Source of the DNA: an uncultured Gammaproteobacteria bacterium | GTDB taxonomy: Bacteria; Patescibacteriota; Patescibacteriia; UBA10025; JAHIVO01 | Length of the DNA: 53,724 bases | Direction of reading: 5' to 3' | Assembly: GCA_964549245.1 (NCBI GenBank) | Contig: CAZJUO010000002.1 | Span: 1 to 53,724, forward strand | In this document: positions 2,595 through 53,724 of the stretch, one piece after another | Layout: every line of letters begins with the position of its first letter | Numbering within the stretch: position 1 is the first letter of the stretch | Translations under genes and position numbers: made by a program | Notes under the pieces: generated by a model | What the model saw: only the letters and a program-made list of their open reading frames with translations | Databases searched by the model: none | What the model was told of the DNA's origin: nothing

Positions 2595-3632
2595 CTAAAA
2601 GCTTTGTTTGGTGGGCAGGGTATTTATTTCTGGCACCAGGCGCGGTTGCGCATACTCAAAAATTTTAATTGGAATAAGGGCAATATCAGTAACATCCCTA
2701 TTCGTAAAGGTAATTTTGGCAATGACGCCTTCACGAGTCGGCTCGGACCACATTTGGTCAAAGACAAAATTACCTAAACTGTAAAAAATATATCCGTGTT
2801 TATATTGTTCATAGGGTTGAAGCACGTGAGGATGGTGGCCGAGAACCAGTGTGGCGCCATGATCGATGGCAGTGTGGGCAAAGGTGATTTGCTCCTGGCT
2901 GGGTTGGTGACTATATTCAATGCCAGCATGCATGGAGACGACAATTATATCAACTTTGTTTTGGAGCTTTTCAATATCACGTATAAGCTTGTCGGTATCC
3001 ATAAAATAAACACCGCTTCGTTGATCGGTGGCTTGGTAGGCGCCAGGGGTAAAACCGCTTTGTGTGTAAGCCAGAAAGCCAAAGGTGGTCTTGTTGACCG
3101 TAAGTATGGCCGGTTGTGCTGCCTTATCCAAATTCATGCCCGCTCCGGTATGGGCAATGCCAGCCTGGTTTAAGGCTGTGATGGTAGTCTGTATGCCTTC
3201 AGCGCCCTGGTTGTTGAGGTGGTTATTAGCAAGTGACAGTATTGAAAAACCCGCGTATTGCAAACCAGTGACCGCTGTTGGGTCAGCGCGGAAGCTCATG
3301 CCGTATGGTTCGACCACAGCGCCTTTGATCAGGGGCGTTTCCAAGTTTCCAAAAACGATATCACCCTGTCTAGTATTGTCTGCCGTTTCCCTGAATGGAT
3401 AGAGCCAGTCGTTATGATTTATCATTTTCTGTTCCACGGTGCGGGCCAGCATGATATCGCCCACAGCAATCAGGGTGGTGGTTTTTGTTTGTGGTACGGC
3501 TATTTGGTAATCAGCTACCAACGGCCACGGAGCGGTGATGGCAATAATAAAAATGGTTATTGCGACAACACTAAACAAACCCACCAGCAGCCACCCAAGG
3601 AATGTATTTTTATTGAAGAGAAAGTTAGACAT
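2595..3632 (-). CDS. CapA family (poly-gamma-glutamate capsule synthesis-like) metallophosphatase, membrane anchored
   Basis: Motifs AVGDIMLAR, FGNLETPL, VSMHAGIEY and LGHHPH, with an N-terminal TM helix. Confidence 0.75.
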   Translation of the reverse strand: MSNFLFNKNTFLGWLLVGLFSVVAITIFIIAITAPWPLVADYQIAVPQTKTTTLIAVGDIMLARTVEQKMINHNDWLYPFRETADNTRQGDIVFGNLETPLIKGAVVEPYGMSFRADPTAVTGLQYAGFSILSLANNHLNNQGAEGIQTTITALNQAGIAHTGAGMNLDKAAQPAILTVNKTTFGFLAYTQSGFTPGAYQATDQRSGVYFMDTDKLIRDIEKLQNKVDIIVVSMHAGIEYSHQPSQEQITFAHTAIDHGATLVLGHHPHVLQPYEQYKHGYIFYSLGNFVFDQMWSEPTREGVIAKITFTNRDVTDIALIPIKIFEYAQPRLVPEINTLPTKQSF

Positions 3633-25567: not shown

Positions 25568-25952
25568 CTTGTCATTGCGAGGAATGAAATGACGAAGCAA
25601 TCTCACCCCTCCTTATTATACCAACCTTCACTCAAGTCTTCCCATTCCGGATTAATTCTTTCAATCAGATTGATTTTCTTCTGCCGCGAGCCTCCCTTGA
25701 TTTGCTTTTCTCTGGCAATGGCATCATTAATGTACTGGAATTCCTCGTAGTAAACCAATTTGTTGATATTGTATCTCTTGGTAAATCCATCCACTTCTCT
25801 ACGCTTATGCTGAAGGACACGGCCCATCAGTTCGCCAGTGACACCAGTATAGAGCGTAGTGTTTACTTTATTTGTCATGATGTAAACGTAGTAGTGGCGC
25901 TCTTTTCGCATAGTGGCTTTTTGAGATTGCTTCGCTTCGCTCGCAATGACAG
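25568..25952 (-). mobile_element. candidate miniature element: GIY-YIG ORF bounded by inverted hairpin modules
   Basis: Left module 25568-25604 is CTTGTCATTGCGAG...GAAGCAATCTC. Right module 25923-25952 is GAGATTGCTTC...CTCGCAATGACAG. The outer and inner arms are reverse complements of each other. Confidence 0.45.
25603..25911 (-). CDS. GIY-YIG nuclease family protein (small, catalytic domain only)
   Basis: YYVYIMTNKVNTTLYTGVT...RVLQHK...E. 102 aa. Confidence 0.85.
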   Translation of the reverse strand: MRKERHYYVYIMTNKVNTTLYTGVTGELMGRVLQHKRREVDGFTKRYNINKLVYYEEFQYINDAIAREKQIKGGSRQKKINLIERINPEWEDLSEGWYNKEG

Positions 25953-47870: not shown

Positions 47871-48464
47871 TTAATTTTTAGCGAAAATATAAATACCTCG
47901 TTCCACCTTACCGATTTTTGCTGACATACCTTTTAATAGTGTGGGTAACAGTACTTGATAAAATTTCGGGGAAAAGAAATCAGGATCTCCAACGGTTACT
48001 TTTGGTTTTATTCCATTTGATATTTTACTGACTAACAAAGCATGACCGAATTTTTTCTTTTTATCAAGCGCGGACATAAAGGTAATGATCATTACGTCAT
48101 GCCCCTTTTTTAGGCTCGTACGGATTAAGTTAGCCGGGTCTTCTGTGGCAGAGCGTTTATAATAGGTTACATGCAGGGGGATTTTTTTATTCCGAAAAAA
48201 ACGGTTAAACGGCCCGGCTTTATCAGAGTCCTGGCAGCCGTAACCGAGTAACGGTTTTTTGGCTGACACCTTGATGCCTTTTGGAAAGAGGTGTTTGTAT
48301 TTCGGCGGTACAACCAGTTTTAAGGCCCGGCCGATTTCCTCCTGGGTAAAGATCGGCAATTTTCTGCGCAGTAAAATCCATTGGACGGCACACGGCACGC
48401 AACACAGCCTTTGCTGGGTTAGGGGGAGATAGGAGGGGGTGACTTTTATTGATGGTTTTTTCAT
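47871..48464 (-). CDS. hypothetical protein, possibly papain-like (C39-like) cysteine peptidase fold
   Basis: QQRLCCVPCAVQWIL (Gln then Cys), GHALLV and GDPD could form a Cys/His/Asp triad. Assignment is weak. Confidence 0.35.
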   Translation of the reverse strand: MKKPSIKVTPSYLPLTQQRLCCVPCAVQWILLRRKLPIFTQEEIGRALKLVVPPKYKHLFPKGIKVSAKKPLLGYGCQDSDKAGPFNRFFRNKKIPLHVTYYKRSATEDPANLIRTSLKKGHDVMIITFMSALDKKKKFGHALLVSKISNGIKPKVTVGDPDFFSPKFYQVLLPTLLKGMSAKIGKVERGIYIFAKN

Positions 48465-48576
48465 GTGTAGTAATACGCGTTTTAAATTGGCGAAGGTCTT
48501 TGGTACCTTGGTAAGCTCGATGTTTAGGTGGAGTTTACGCTTACTGCGTTCACTTCATGATTCGCACAGACAATTT

Positions 48577-48591
48577 CCCAGAGCGGAGGAG
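48577..48591. repeat. left arm of perfect 15-bp inverted repeat (CCCAGAGCGGAGGAG)
   Basis: Exact reverse complement of 49148-49162. Confidence 0.9.
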
Positions 48592-48603
48592 GTGAGATTC
48601 GCC
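48584..48603 (-). pseudogene. tRNA 3'-end-like fragment (T-loop remnant plus acceptor 3' strand plus discriminator)
   Basis: Minus strand GGCGAATCTCACCTCCTCCG matches the tRNA-Ser(CGA) 3' end TTCGAATCCCACCCCTTCCG at 15/20 positions. Its acceptor strand is complementary to the 5' fragment at 49148-49154. Confidence 0.55.
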
Positions 48604-48655
48604 CAGTCATCCGACTGGGCGCCATGCCGGATGGCATGGCAAACCCCAAGCAGAA

Positions 48656-48669
48656 GGGGCGAGAGCGGC
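48656..48669. repeat. 14-nt direct repeat GGGGCGAGAGCGGC (copy 1)
   Basis: Identical to 49115-49128. Confidence 0.85.
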
Positions 48670-48681
48670 TAATTAATTCAA

Positions 48682-48768
48682 CGGAAGGGGTGGGATTCGA
48701 ACCCACGGTACCCTTGCAGGTACATCGCTTTTCGAGAGCGACCCGATCGACCACTCCGGCACCCTTCC
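48682..48768 (-). tRNA. tRNA-Ser (anticodon CGA), type II with long variable arm
   Basis: Manual cloverleaf is GGAAGGG-TG-CCGG-AGTGGTCGA-TCGG-G-TCGCT-CTCGAAA-AGCGA-TGTACCTGCAAGGGTACC-GTGGG-TTCGAAT-CCCAC-CCCTTCC-G. CCA is not encoded. Confidence 0.9.
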
Positions 48769-48770
48769 AT

Positions 48771-49082
48771 CTATTCCTCATATTTAATTTGCTTGTACTT
48801 TCCTATTGATTTTAAAAAACTTGATAATTGTCTATTTAGGAATTTTTTACAATCACTTGTCTTTAGGAATTTCTCTCGCCGCCTGGCATCTTCCTCGAGA
48901 ATATATGCTTCATAGTGAATCAGTCGTAACGGCCGTAAGTGTTTAGTTGATTTTACCTCACCATCATGGTGTTGTTTAACCCTTTGTTTGAGTGCTGTCG
49001 TAAAGCCAGTATATAGTGTATTGTTTTTTAGGAGTAGTAGATATACAAAGTACATATTGTTATGTGAATGCGTTTTCGCCAC
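48771..49082 (-). CDS. GIY-YIG nuclease family protein (small, catalytic domain only)
   Basis: MYFVYLLLLKNNTLYTGFTTALKQRVKQH...E. The true start may be ATG 49055. The stop TAG at 48773-48771 lies 2 nt before the tRNA. Confidence 0.8.
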   Translation of the reverse strand: MAKTHSHNNMYFVYLLLLKNNTLYTGFTTALKQRVKQHHDGEVKSTKHLRPLRLIHYEAYILEEDARRREKFLKTSDCKKFLNRQLSSFLKSIGKYKQIKYEE

Positions 49083-49114
49083 GGGATGAACCCGTGGCGC
49101 CCCGAGTTAATCTC

Positions 49115-49128
49115 GGGGCGAGAGCGGC
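49115..49128. repeat. 14-nt direct repeat GGGGCGAGAGCGGC (copy 2)
   Basis: Identical to 48656-48669. Confidence 0.85.
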
Positions 49129-49154
49129 CCGTTCAACCACTCCGGCACTCCTCC
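49119..49154 (-). pseudogene. tRNA-Ser-like 5' half (acceptor 5' strand, D arm, 5' side of anticodon arm)
   Basis: Minus strand GGAGGAGTGCCGGAGTGGTTGAACGGGCCGCTCTCG is identical at 31/36 positions to positions 1-36 of tRNA-Ser(CGA). No matching anticodon 3' strand follows. Confidence 0.6.
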
Positions 49155-49162
49155 GCTCTGGG
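49148..49162. repeat. right arm of perfect 15-bp inverted repeat (CTCCTCCGCTCTGGG)
   Basis: Exact reverse complement of 48577-48591. Confidence 0.9.
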
Positions 49163-49172
49163 GTTTTGATAA

Positions 49173-49715
49173 TTAACGTTTATAAATGTATACGATACTA
49201 CTGTTGGGATTTTGGGGTTTGATCTGTACAGTTTTGATAGGCTGCCATTGGGGAATTTTGAAAGCATACGAGAGGACCATAGTTCCCGGCTTCAAATCAG
49301 CCTTGAGTTTTTCTCCTACTTTTTTCATAACGCTGTCTATTAAAAAACAAAAAACTACCGTAGCTTCACTTAGATTTTCATGATAAAAATTTTTATAATA
49401 TACAGTTGTTTTAGCCTGTTGTTTTTTAATGTTCATTTTGGCCCGCCAGTAAGCCAGGGGGGTTATTTCAAAGCCGACCGTGGTAGCGCCGGCAGCCTTT
49501 TCAATAGCGATTAAAGTGCCAGCATCACCGCATCCAAGGTCATAGACGCGATCCTTGGCAGTAATGTTCGCTTCTTTGATAATGATAGGAACTAGGTTTT
49601 TTGGGCTGCGCACAAACGGCACTTTAGTATATAATAAGACGAATAAAATTACCAGCGACAGTATGGAGACAGAGACCGTGAGTATTAGAATAATAATGAG
49701 GAGAGTAAGCAGCAT
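49173..49715 (-). CDS. membrane-anchored class I SAM-dependent methyltransferase
   Basis: Start at ATG 49715. N-terminal TM, VPFVRSP, then VYDLGCGDAGTL motif I. Confidence 0.7.
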   Translation of the reverse strand: MLLTLLIIILILTVSVSILSLVILFVLLYTKVPFVRSPKNLVPIIIKEANITAKDRVYDLGCGDAGTLIAIEKAAGATTVGFEITPLAYWRAKMNIKKQQAKTTVYYKNFYHENLSEATVVFCFLIDSVMKKVGEKLKADLKPGTMVLSYAFKIPQWQPIKTVQIKPQNPNSSIVYIYKR

Positions 49716-49722
49716 ATGGTTT

Positions 49723-50982
49723 TTAAAATAGGGTTGTTTGCTTTTTTTCCGCTTGCCGCAGTTCTTGATCAGAGAAAATGGATATGGTGCCGTATTCGCC
49801 GTCGTAGCCGGGCAGTGCGGAAATAGTACCCTGACGCACGCGCCGTATGCCTTCGGCAATTGTTGGAGTTGTCATTTTTTGCAGTTCTTCCAAGGGGATG
49901 TTCAATAGTATGTTGAATTCATTTTGGCCCTTTTTTATCAGGGATTCATATTCACCTACAACGGTTTTTGTATTCACGCCTTTTTGCATGACCGCGGCGA
50001 TGATTTCTTGGAGCGGCACTAGGCTTTTGAACCCCGGACGGTTTTTGGGCTGGTACCCTTCCGGCCGGTCGGCTAATTCATTAACGCGATAGAGGACGCC
50101 GACGGTCAATTTTTTCTTGCACTTGGGGCACACCCCTTTATGCTTATTGGTCTCGTTTGGTGAGAGCCGAACTTCGCATTTGCGGTGGCCGTCAAAATGG
50201 TACCGACCTTCCTCCGGAAAAAACTCAACTGTATAGTCAATTTTATTTTTGTCATTAGTGTGCTTGATAGCTTCGAGTATTGCATCATACGTTAACGATT
50301 CTAAATTAAATACCGTGGCTTCCCGCCCCATTTTGGCTGGTGAGTGCGCGTCTGAAAAGGAGACGATTGACATGCGGTCAAGCTGGGAAAGGCGCCAGTT
50401 CATGGGAGGATCGGAGGAAAGGCCTGTTTCAATAGCATGAATATGCTTTGCCATGCCGCCAAAACATTCTTCTAACGTGTCAAAGCCGGACTTAGAGCCA
50501 AACATGGAAAACCAGGGCGTCCAGATGTGCGCTGGTATGAGCATAGCCCGGGGAGAAGTATCCATAACAATTTTTACCAGTTCTTCCGAGTCGAGACCGA
50601 GAATAGGACGACCGTCTGATTTGATATTCCCAATTGTGGCTAGCTGCGAATTAAATTTTTTCACACTGGCCAAATCAGGCATAATGATGACGTGGTGGAT
50701 ACGGCGAGCTACGTCATTTTTTTTGTAGATACAGCTTAACTCGGTAGTCAGCATGAAATGGCAGGCATGCTTGCGGTTTGTAAGCCGATAGAGGCCGTTA
50801 TCCTGCTGCTGCAATTTTTTAGTTAGCTGCCCAAACCAGGCAGGGTGCGTAAAATCAGATACGGTAATAACGTCGATGCCTTTAATATCAGCCCAGCGGG
50901 CCATTATAGGCAGTTCCATTTGCTGGGAAACGGCCCGTGAATATTTTGAGTGGAAATGTAAATCGGTAAAATAGCTTGGCAT
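49723..50982 (-). CDS. endonuclease Q (PHP-domain, deaminated-base endonuclease) family protein
   Basis: DLHFHSKYSRAVS...VSDFTHPAWF (PHP motif) and a C-terminal zinc finger CPKCKKKLTVGV. 419 aa. Confidence 0.7.
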   Translation of the reverse strand: MPSYFTDLHFHSKYSRAVSQQMELPIMARWADIKGIDVITVSDFTHPAWFGQLTKKLQQQDNGLYRLTNRKHACHFMLTTELSCIYKKNDVARRIHHVIIMPDLASVKKFNSQLATIGNIKSDGRPILGLDSEELVKIVMDTSPRAMLIPAHIWTPWFSMFGSKSGFDTLEECFGGMAKHIHAIETGLSSDPPMNWRLSQLDRMSIVSFSDAHSPAKMGREATVFNLESLTYDAILEAIKHTNDKNKIDYTVEFFPEEGRYHFDGHRKCEVRLSPNETNKHKGVCPKCKKKLTVGVLYRVNELADRPEGYQPKNRPGFKSLVPLQEIIAAVMQKGVNTKTVVGEYESLIKKGQNEFNILLNIPLEELQKMTTPTIAEGIRRVRQGTISALPGYDGEYGTISIFSDQELRQAEKKQTTLF

Positions 50983-53130: not shown

Positions 53131-53142
53131 TTTTGTTATAAA

Positions 53143-53258
53143 CTGGCGATGGCCTACTTTCCCCGCGGTGTGCCCCGCAGTATCATCGGCGCAGGCAGGC
53201 TTAACTGCTGAGTTCGGAATGGGATCAGGTGTGACCCTGCCGCTTGAAGCACCAGAGG
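53143..53258 (-). rRNA. rrf: 5S ribosomal RNA
   Basis: The minus strand reads CCTCTGGTGC...CCCATTCCGAACTCAGCAGTTAAGC...GTAGGCCATCGCCAG. These are classic 5S loop C/helix III and terminal helix sequences. Confidence 0.9.
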
Positions 53259-53451
53259 TTAAAAAATAAATGATTATTTCTTATACCTCCAGTCTCAAGC
53301 TTAATACGGTTTGATCGGCGTAAGATACAGAATGATGCTGACAAAAGCGATAACCAGAATAAACACAAAAATAAGTTGTATGTTTATTTTTTTATTCATA
53401 TTTTGTTTAATAATTTGGGAAAACACGTAGCAAGCAATTGCAGTCTTTTAG

Positions 53452-53724
<273 letters not shown>

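Follow-up and report, generated by a model that had tools for sequence, protein, structure and literature searches.

How does a serine transfer RNA (tRNA) gene come to lie in two pieces on either side of an open reading frame (ORF) and a second, intact tRNA-Ser gene? Such an arrangement is found on the minus strand of contig CAZJUO010000002.1, in the 53,724-nt stretch of DNA that was analysed here as a whole (hereafter, the window). The first-pass annotation of this DNA described the outer pieces as halves of one tRNA-Ser-like gene that pair in a perfect 15-bp helix and bracket a GIY-YIG ORF and an intact tRNA-Ser(CGA), and offered three readings of them: a mobile cassette that carries a replacement tRNA, an RNase III-type processing stem, and a novel split or interrupted tRNA. 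We conclude that the locus is probably a tRNA-Ser(CGA) gene that was colonised by a small selfish cassette, composed of a double-hairpin module (HH) of ca. 40 nt and a gene for a 94-aa GIY-YIG protein, with an intact copy of the tRNA alongside. The best reading of the cassette is that of a homing-type mobile element that would regenerate its own tRNA target, both the nuclease activity and the mechanism of transfer being predicted from sequence comparison.

Related loci were gathered from genomes (13 loci) and metagenomes (80 loci), and a few more were obtained through exact-protein look-ups, giving about 100 loci in total, 84 of them non-redundant. A co-oriented tRNA gene was present within 60 nt of the ORF at 57 of the 84 non-redundant loci (downstream at 41, upstream at 19, on both sides at some), and no opposite-strand tRNA was found among these 57. 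A hairpin pair was located within 60 nt of the ORF at 48 of the 84 loci. The closest relatives of the window protein are encoded at tRNA-Ser(CGA) genes; other cassettes are associated with tRNAs Ser(GGA, GCT, TGA), Gln, Arg, Lys, Met, Glu, Tyr, Leu, and Gly, and more than 14 tRNA species are represented overall. Two orders of elements, which mirror each other, were observed. In type U (at least 22 loci, including the window), a 5' partial tRNA is followed by an HH, 8-28 nt, the ORF, 0-40 nt, and an intact tRNA; in type D (at least 10 loci), an intact tRNA is followed by 0-14 nt, the ORF, 2-44 nt, an HH, and a 3' partial tRNA. Remnants are present on both sides of the cassette in the window and in L015, L053, L054, and L082. 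Within a locus, identity of the partial copy to the intact tRNA is often 100%, while the ORFs are merely 45-80% identical between loci. Placement of the ORF between an intact gene copy and a displaced partial copy, a hallmark of the mobile ORFs (mORFs) of fungal mitochondria, was seen at the window locus as well as at 32 or more related loci. We conclude that related cassettes occupy many tRNA genes of tiny uncultured bacteria of the candidate phyla radiation (CPR). The first of the three readings was thus borne out by the recurrence of the partial tRNA, the HH, the GIY-YIG ORF, and the intact tRNA in dozens of independent contigs, and by the presence, in one metagenome locus (L030), of an uninterrupted tRNA of the outer type. 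Full-text literature searches, with subscription journals outside their coverage, returned no description of such a tRNA-nested arrangement in bacteria.

The features of the window locus, listed from upstream to downstream, are as follows:

49155-49162, minus strand: leader, CCCAGAGC, 8 nt.
49148-49162, minus strand: leader arm of the 15-bp inverted repeat, composed of CCCAGAGC and the acceptor 5' strand of the outer tRNA, GGAGGAG; 100% complementary to the other arm (repeat finder).
49119-49154, minus strand: 5' piece of the outer tRNA-Ser(CGA), positions 1-36, GGAGGAGTGCCGGAGTGGTTGAACGGGCCGCTCTCG; acceptor 5' strand, D arm, and anticodon-stem 5' strand and loop up to CTCG.
49077-49118, minus strand: double-hairpin module of class 2 (5-nt loops), inserted in the anticodon loop at CTCG|AAAA; aligned with 14 relatives.
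49100-49118, minus strand: hairpin H1, CCCCGAG ATTAA CTCGGGG, then CG.
49079-49097, minus strand: hairpin H2, CCACGGG TTCAT CCCGTGG, then CG.
49056-49076, minus strand: resumed tRNA, AAAA (4 nt), and the 17-nt untranslated leader of the ORF; the right flank of the module continues the tRNA.
48771-49055, minus strand: GIY-YIG ORF, 94 aa, single domain, UPF0213 / prokaryotic Slx1-like group.
48681-48769, minus strand: intact inner tRNA-Ser(CGA), found by ARAGORN and matching the Rfam tRNA model at 55.4 bits; it begins 2 nt past the stop codon of the ORF.
48670-48681, minus strand: 12-nt spacer after the inner tRNA.
48656-48669, minus strand: second copy of the 14-nt junction GCCGCTCTCG|CCCC, i.e., the end of the outer 5' piece and the first 4 nt of H1, 12 nt past the inner tRNA.
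48644-48659, minus strand: degenerate hairpin CCCC TTCTGCTT GGGG (read from the sequence), probably a decayed H1-like arm.
48600-48640, minus strand: double-hairpin module of class 1 (4-nt loops), the second of the locus; its T-loop junction reads ..TTTG|..|AATC.
48621-48640, minus strand: hairpin H4, GCCATGCC ATCC GGCATGGC.
48602-48619, minus strand: hairpin H5, CCCAGTC GGAT GACTGGG, then CG.
48584-48599, minus strand: 3' piece of the outer tRNA-Ser(CGA), AATCTCACCTCCTCCG; T-loop AAT, T-stem 3' strand CTCAC, acceptor 3' strand CTCCTCC, and discriminator G.
48577-48583, minus strand: trailer, CTCTGGG.
48577-48591, minus strand: trailer-side arm of the 15-bp inverted repeat (CTCCTCC, then G and CTCTGGG); its pairing with the leader arm is present in the predicted RNA fold.

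The GIY-YIG ORF and the intact tRNA-Ser(CGA) between the outer pieces were confirmed by Pfam, ARAGORN, and Rfam, and ARAGORN reported a single tRNA gene in the whole 53.7 kb. The window holds one double-hairpin module of each format class. A perfect 14-nt direct repeat, GCCGCTCTCGCCCC, which the repeat finder placed at 49115-49128 and 48656-48669, had been overlooked in the first-pass annotation. Hairpins of the cassette type were found at the tRNA-Ser(CGA) locus and nowhere else in the window, and a genome-wide dispersed repeat was rejected for that reason.

The outer 5' piece (49154-49119) is identical to the first 36 nt of the inner tRNA at 31 of 36 positions (86%; repeat finder), and the 3' end-like piece matches it at 15 of 20, as read from the sequence. 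The acceptor of the 5' piece differs from that of the inner tRNA at positions 4 and 6 (GGAGGAG against GGAAGGG), and the 3' piece carries the compensating changes (CTCCTCC against CCCTTCC), as had been claimed. An uninterrupted tRNA with the acceptor GGAGGAG/CTCCTCC, of the kind called for in the first-pass annotation, was found on another contig: the intact tRNA-Ser(CGA) of L030 has this acceptor and the T stem GTGAG/CTCAC, as in the outer pieces, and matches the 5' piece at 34 of 36 positions and the 3' piece, taken together with the preceding CG (CGAATCTCACCTCCTCCG), at 18 of 18. Both outer pieces therefore derive from one gene type. Divergence of the inserted copy from the native one, another mark of mORF-type elements, is seen here in the five differences between the inner tRNA, presumably the inserted copy, and the outer 5' piece, presumably native, set beside the agreement of the outer pieces with L030. 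This divergence suggests that the ORF and its tRNA may have arrived from a diverged donor, with further hairpin insertions and deletions afterwards.

The junctions between tRNA and module are precise. A partial copy ends in ...YCG|, after which come two hairpins, each closing in CG, and 4-7 nt of resumed tRNA (AAAA, AATCC, or AAGCCG, for example) before the sequences diverge. The two flanks of a module could be assigned to a single, exact position of a tRNA at the same locus for 40 of the 59 HH modules. The targets are TTCG|AAT in the T-loop and, in the anticodon loop, CTCG|AAA in Ser(CGA) and TGCG|AAG and TCCG|AAG in two Arg tRNAs; two modules are located elsewhere, one after the anticodon TCG of an Arg tRNA (L051) and one beyond the anticodon loop (L044). 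In the window, the outer 5' piece ends exactly at CTCG|, which cuts the anticodon after its second base. The form CG-H1-CG-H2-CG was observed in 39 modules. Two targets contain CA in place of CG, namely TTCA|AAT in the T-loop of a Glu tRNA (L041) and CTCA|AAA in the anticodon loop of a Leu tRNA (L075); in both, H2 is also followed by CA, which indicates a duplication of 2 bp of the target. Single hairpins were also present in the D-loops of decayed partial copies (L015, L017, L026, L030, and L075).

The HH modules are 40-42 nt long and fall into two classes, both with 7-bp stems: class 1 has 4-nt loops (ATNC in H1, GNAT in H2), class 2 has 5-nt loops (ATNAA and TTNAT), and H2 resembles the reverse complement of H1. 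The modules were aligned by class, with H4 and H5 of the window as a row of the class-1 alignment and its H1 and H2 aligned with 14 class-2 relatives, and base-pair changes in the stems were counted:

Class 1 (4-nt loops), 26 sequences: 98.6% of positions paired, 70 double changes, 0 G-U or one-sided cells.
Class 2 (5-nt loops), 15 sequences: 99.5% of positions paired, 52 double changes, 2 (G-U) cells.

Shuffle and sliding controls were far below the observed values. The stem of an RNA normally shows G-U intermediates. Here, G-U cells numbered 0 and 2 among 574, and the stem mismatches showed no bias to wobble pairs on the sense strand. Selection on hairpins at the RNA level was rejected, the changes being nearly all double Watson-Crick ones. 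Strict Watson-Crick covariation therefore argues for a constraint at the level of DNA, be it a cruciform, a single-stranded DNA hairpin, or a symmetric protein site, and points to the hairpins as probable DNA palindromes. No terminator T-run accompanies the hairpins.

The window ORF matches the Pfam GIY-YIG family (PF01541) at 47.4 bits, against a cut-off of 22.6 (E = 2.5e-12). The conserved catalytic residues of the GIY-YIG fold (Tyr of GIY, Tyr-x-Gly of YIG, Arg, and Glu) are present in the window protein, and, across 30 relatives including it, Y15, T16, G17, R25, and E49 are invariant, with Y5 and H29 nearly so. Among solved structures, PDB 1zg2 (E = 3e-11) and 1ywl are the closest; of the relatives with known structure, BH0048 and EF2693, both UPF0213 proteins, are nearest, and Slx1 comes next. 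Foldseek, run with an AlphaFold2 model of the protein (mean predicted local distance difference test score 86.8), ranked 1zg2 and 1ywl first and Slx1-Slx4 entries next. By profile and model, the predicted protein is a member of the UPF0213 / prokaryotic Slx1-like branch of minimal GIY-YIG proteins (YhbQ, YazA), as the family has been defined (PMC1564403, PMC7017083). Family searches returned 2,493 clusters at 50% identity with E <= 1e-10, and 15,420 with E <= 1e-3. A phage origin was rejected, since a single weak match was obtained among 50,697 phage records.

The window contains another small GIY-YIG ORF, different from the first, at ~25610-25920 of the minus strand, in the region 25570-25951. 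A tblastn alignment of 59 aa (25669-25845) shows 37% identity between this ORF and the first. Imperfect inverted repeats of ~36 nt flank it, TGTCATTGCGAG...CGAAGCAATCTCA at 25570-25605 with the complement at 25922-25951. No tRNA is nearby, and the ORF looks like another kind of GIY-YIG mobile unit. ORFs for LAGLIDADG and HNH endonucleases were also observed, at 457-1455 and 3588-3824 of L098, 1655-1903 of L099, and 1-377 of L109, where they are located near orthologues of the gene that neighbours the window cassette and near another cassette. These genomes appear to be rich in several kinds of homing-type nuclease genes.

Several loci carry traces of movement or turnover. In L068 and L069, a unit that extends from 7 nt before the ATG through the HH plus AATCCCG is 99.7% identical, though its flanking DNA is different: one unit follows a tRNA-Lys, and the other follows unrelated DNA in which a different 3' tRNA remnant is present. 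An identical HH sequence occurs in L097 in both anticodon-loop and T-loop contexts of one locus; in L053, nearly the same HH is present on both sides of the ORF and tRNA, and recurs at a second T-loop context. Two 100% identical units (5' partial copy, HH, and ORF) are present in one 13-kb contig, L023. Downstream of one and the same ORF, contigs L109, L110, and L113 run into an intact tRNA; contigs L111, L112, and L114 run into tRNA positions 1-36, an HH, and the ORF again. Tandem units of this kind are expected from repeated insertion into a regenerated tRNA, or from unequal exchange. A change of context of a single ORF was sought for P0039 and P0015 and rejected: each keeps one neighbourhood in all of its contigs, though the copy number of the unit varies.

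Two further duplications were noted in related loci. Tandem copies of trailer, GGGTTCG, HH, and tRNA 3' end follow intact tRNAs, with no ORF, at ~900-1200 of L054 and 2996-3179 of L015; the L015 array reaches the end of its contig, and part of it may be an assembly loop. In L002, from a Cloacimonadota metagenome-assembled genome (JAUVLU010000008), a segment of 169 nt is duplicated with 96% identity (2783-2951 and 3260-3428); it extends ~130 nt upstream of the tRNA, and within it an older 5' piece that resembles tRNA-Ser is interrupted by many extra insertions.

A specific cleavage-and-repair mechanism, proposed by analogy with known homing systems, has in our estimate about an even chance of being correct. 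The predicted nuclease, probably acting as a dimer, would cut at YCG|A in DNA that encodes tRNA loops. In the T-loop, this site is the centre of a palindrome, TTCG|AA, which would suit a dimer of such a minimal domain. The cut would leave a 2-nt stagger, typical of GIY-YIG enzymes such as T4 SegB, and the break would be repaired by copying from the occupied allele, with the truncated and complete tRNA copies that flank the cassette possibly serving as portable homology arms. The host would keep a working tRNA with no need of splicing. The ORF would presumably be transcribed with the tRNA: it is co-oriented with the tRNA and abuts it at near-zero spacing, and is therefore presumably expressed from the tRNA transcript. 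The evidence is evenly balanced on a broader proposal, namely that a minimal UPF0213/Slx1-like GIY-YIG protein and a 40-42-nt double-hairpin palindrome together constitute an undescribed class of bacterial mobile elements, which inserts at the centres of palindromic loop-encoding tRNA DNA (YCG|A) with a 2-bp duplication, spares its host by having the tRNA regenerated through partial or complete duplication, may shuffle tRNA genes between genomes, and gives UPF0213 a role.

A number of observations weigh against the interpretation of the locus as a mobile cassette. No empty site was found through orthologues of the neighbouring gene; these orthologues (56-64% identity, in Candidatus Kaiserbacteria and other Parcubacteria) are not syntenic. 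An identical ORF was recovered in the same context in 12 contigs from many samples; the elements are therefore not hyperactive. The regenerated intact tRNA keeps the presumed target, and there is therefore no obvious self-immunity. Characterised GIY-YIG homing endonucleases (I-TevI, I-BmoI, and SegB) carry a separate DNA-binding domain that reads a long target; in the window protein, Pfam detected no second or DNA-binding domain, and the model is one compact domain with short C-terminal helices. The HH could be cut by an Slx1-like nuclease that is selective for structure, could be bound by a protein, or could be a miniature element in its own right. Finally, the downstream part of the window locus would require several additional events that cannot be put in order: it contains the 14-nt repeat, the degenerate hairpin, and, to the left of the class-1 hairpin pair, a T-arm stub (GGGGTTTG) incompatible with the outer T stem.

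The first two of these observations, the constant neighbours and the missing empty site, together with the tandem repeats of L023 and L054, are also what would be expected if nothing had moved: the tRNA would have undergone tandem duplication and decay, the GIY-YIG gene would be an ordinary host gene of a tRNA operon, and the hairpins would be terminators or stabilisers resembling repetitive extragenic palindromes. We consider this explanation unlikely. It does not account for a three-part arrangement with nucleotide-precise loop junctions at more than 14 tRNA species, for partial copies often identical to the intact tRNA next to ORFs that differ by far more between loci, for the nearly identical unit in different flanks of L068 and L069, or for the 2-bp target duplication at non-CG sites; the absence of a T-run speaks against terminators.

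The perfect 15-nt inverted repeat (48577-48591 and 49148-49162; 100% complementary, 556 nt between the arms) was reproduced. By our arithmetic, ~6e-4 perfect 15-bp inverted repeats are expected by chance in a region of ~1.1 kb. Seven bp of the helix are the acceptor stem of the dead outer gene, and the other 8 bp extend it into leader and trailer. The helix closes both the minimum-free-energy and the centroid fold of a 601-nt transcript, with z = -8.1 relative to shuffles. The predicted folds favour the proposal that the helix is a functional RNase III-type stem that brackets a polycistronic transcript (leader, GIY-YIG mRNA, and tRNA-Ser) and for which the tRNA-like outer sequences have been kept, as does the 8-bp extension, which is far from chance, given that the extension is 3 bp or less in 126 of 128 tRNAs of related loci. 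Against the proposal, the extension is absent at the uninterrupted tRNA of L030, most related loci have a one-sided partial copy, so that no such helix is possible, the z-score is largely owed to the tRNA and the GC hairpins, and the hairpins covary as DNA palindromes with no wobble pairs. The 15-bp helix is not a family feature, and a processing stem is, in our view, improbable.

Extended acceptor helices were noted at two intact tRNAs of related loci, Arg(tct) at 447-520 of L083, where the extension is 15 perfect bp, and Lys(ttt) at 1783-1857 of L090, where it is 7 bp. Removal of the tRNA leaves a perfect palindrome in these two cases and in that of the window outer tRNA. A bolder extension of the mobile-cassette interpretation is that the 94-aa nuclease might read the structure of DNA, a cruciform or cloverleaf, and not its sequence; if true, this would also explain why these tRNA genes are centred in perfect palindromes.

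The description of the outer pieces as halves did not hold. Positions 1-36 and ~56-73 exist, while the middle (~37-55) is absent, so that the anticodon-stem 3' strand, the variable arm, and the T-stem 5' strand, which a novel split or interrupted tRNA would require, are not supplied. Farther downstream, GCCGCTCTCG occurs again, but it repeats the 5' strand of the anticodon stem and does not provide the strand that pairs with it. Lacking everything from anticodon position 36 to the T-loop CG, the outer pieces therefore cannot assemble into a functional tRNA. Covariance-model homology was not detected either: the outer pieces gave no match to Rfam RF00005 at E <= 10, in context or in isolation (at 36 and 20 nt, they may fall below a scorable length), and a truncated covariance-model search of the isolated pieces gave none. 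Identity with a known RNA was rejected, since at E <= 10 Rfam returned the inner tRNA and noise alone in 48300-49400, with no group I or group II intron and no transfer-messenger RNA. Hairpin runs were also removed in silico at about 100 loci, with four boundary variants, and the products submitted to ARAGORN; no genuine new tRNA appeared, and the hairpins are therefore not introns. A tRNA-Sec or long-variable-arm tRNA, formed by deletion between the 14-nt repeats, was dropped as a candidate, because its anticodon stem cannot form. We conclude that the "split tRNA" is a remnant of a tRNA-Ser gene and not a functional gene. Separated pieces with complementary GC-rich flanks are also known from the split and permuted tRNAs of archaea, but the archaeal halves hold every tRNA position and are joined at a bulge-helix-bulge, whereas the window pieces miss ~20 positions and have an intact gene between them (PMC4033280). 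In spite of acceptor strands that are perfectly complementary, with compensated changes and an extended helix, a genuine second tRNA-Ser, joined from the outer pieces in the archaeal manner, is highly improbable given the missing parts, the anticodon cut after its second base, the negative Rfam and hairpin-removal results, and the intact tRNA-Ser(CGA) in between. An assembly chimera or collapsed repeat is scarcely credible: the 36-nt and 14-nt repeats and tRNA paralogues can mislead assemblers, and related contigs L015, L111, L112, and L114 end inside repeats, but a Logan contig of run SRR7048225 (possibly from the same reads as the window) spans both junctions with 100% identity over 1739 nt, the same architecture is present in dozens of contigs from unrelated projects and assemblers, and the repeats are shorter than typical k-mers.

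The neighbours of the tRNA pieces encode a methyltransferase-like protein and a protein with no Pfam domain. Relatives of the neighbouring gene belong to Candidatus Kaiserbacteria and other Parcubacteria, which makes the source of the window a CPR bacterium. A gene for a class-I S-adenosylmethionine methyltransferase-like protein is located near a tRNA-Ser(CGA) cassette at three loci (49173-49859 of the window, 1501-2049 of L016, and 926-1486 of L017); the three genes are on different strands and belong to different subfamilies, and their proximity is probably residual synteny and not a functional link. The edge of the window (53141-53724, minus strand) contains the 3' end of a 23S ribosomal RNA (rRNA) gene and a 5S rRNA gene.

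Integrase-borne islands use a crossover in the anticodon loop or T-loop of a tRNA gene; a segment that they carry restores the gene, and a displaced partial copy marks their other end. The cassette shares with them the same two sublocations, the gene-restoring segment, and the displaced partial copy. It differs in its size of ~0.4 kb, in that the 5' part can be the duplicated one, and in the presence of an inserted palindrome instead of a simple identity block. No tyrosine or serine recombinase is encoded at the end of the element, the GIY-YIG gene being the sole ORF between the outer pieces.

The closest analogues of the cassette are T4 SegB and the fungal mitochondrial mORFs. SegB is a free-standing GIY-YIG homing endonuclease encoded in a phage tRNA gene cluster, among tRNA genes and with no intron, as in the cassette; it recognises a conserved T-psi-C stem-loop (T-arm) motif in tRNA-gene DNA, to which the T-loop junctions of the cassette may be compared, makes 2-nt 3' overhangs, and spreads with neighbouring tRNA genes, features to which the cassette has been likened here (PMC2330249). 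Unlike the 94-aa single-domain protein of the UPF0213/Slx1 branch, SegB is a two-domain protein from a 687-bp fragment (PMC2330249). It has neither the double hairpin nor the partial tRNA duplication of the cassette, and its hosts are phages, whereas those of the cassette are CPR chromosomes. The mORFs carry a copy of the end of their host gene, for example atp6 in Allomyces and atp6, atp9, cox2, and nad3 in Glomus (PMC3630166). In these elements, a LAGLIDADG or GIY-YIG ORF resides in a gene with no intron, a foreign copy keeps the gene whole, and the native part is left as a remnant that has diverged from the inserted copy, the same logic as that of the inner and outer tRNAs (PMC3630166). However, the targets of mORFs are protein-coding and the 3' end alone is replaced, whereas the cassette resides in a tRNA gene, either end of which can be duplicated, in mirror types, and the window holds a whole tRNA inside the wreck of another.

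The mitochondrial DNA of Allomyces contains double-hairpin elements (Paquin et al. 2000), and GC-rich palindromes flank mitochondrial tRNA genes of Neurospora (Yin et al. 1981). Both, as summarised in PMC2800124, invite a comparison by description: like the HH, they are short, GC-rich, two-hairpin, apparently mobile DNA in AT-rich genomes, some beside tRNA genes. Relative to that summary, the HH differs in its fixed 40-42-nt format, its YCG|A target in tRNA loops, its 2-bp duplication, and its linked nuclease gene.

UPF0213-type GIY-YIG genes tied to double hairpins at precise tRNA-gene sites thus form a large family. The literature searched contained nothing on such cassettes in bacteria, yet the kind of selfish element is a known one, as SegB and the mORFs demonstrate. 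The predicted nuclease, with its defined palindromic or structured target and its small size, could be of interest to biotechnology. In CPR genome bins, tRNA pseudo-fragments, tandem repeats, and contig breaks beside tRNAs could be due to the cassette. The widespread UPF0213/Slx1-like family, an orphan with solved structures, gains a concrete genomic setting. The cassette shows an intron-less way for a selfish nuclease gene to enter essential tRNA genes, in which the disrupted part is carried or recreated, and suggests a route for the horizontal replacement of tRNA genes.

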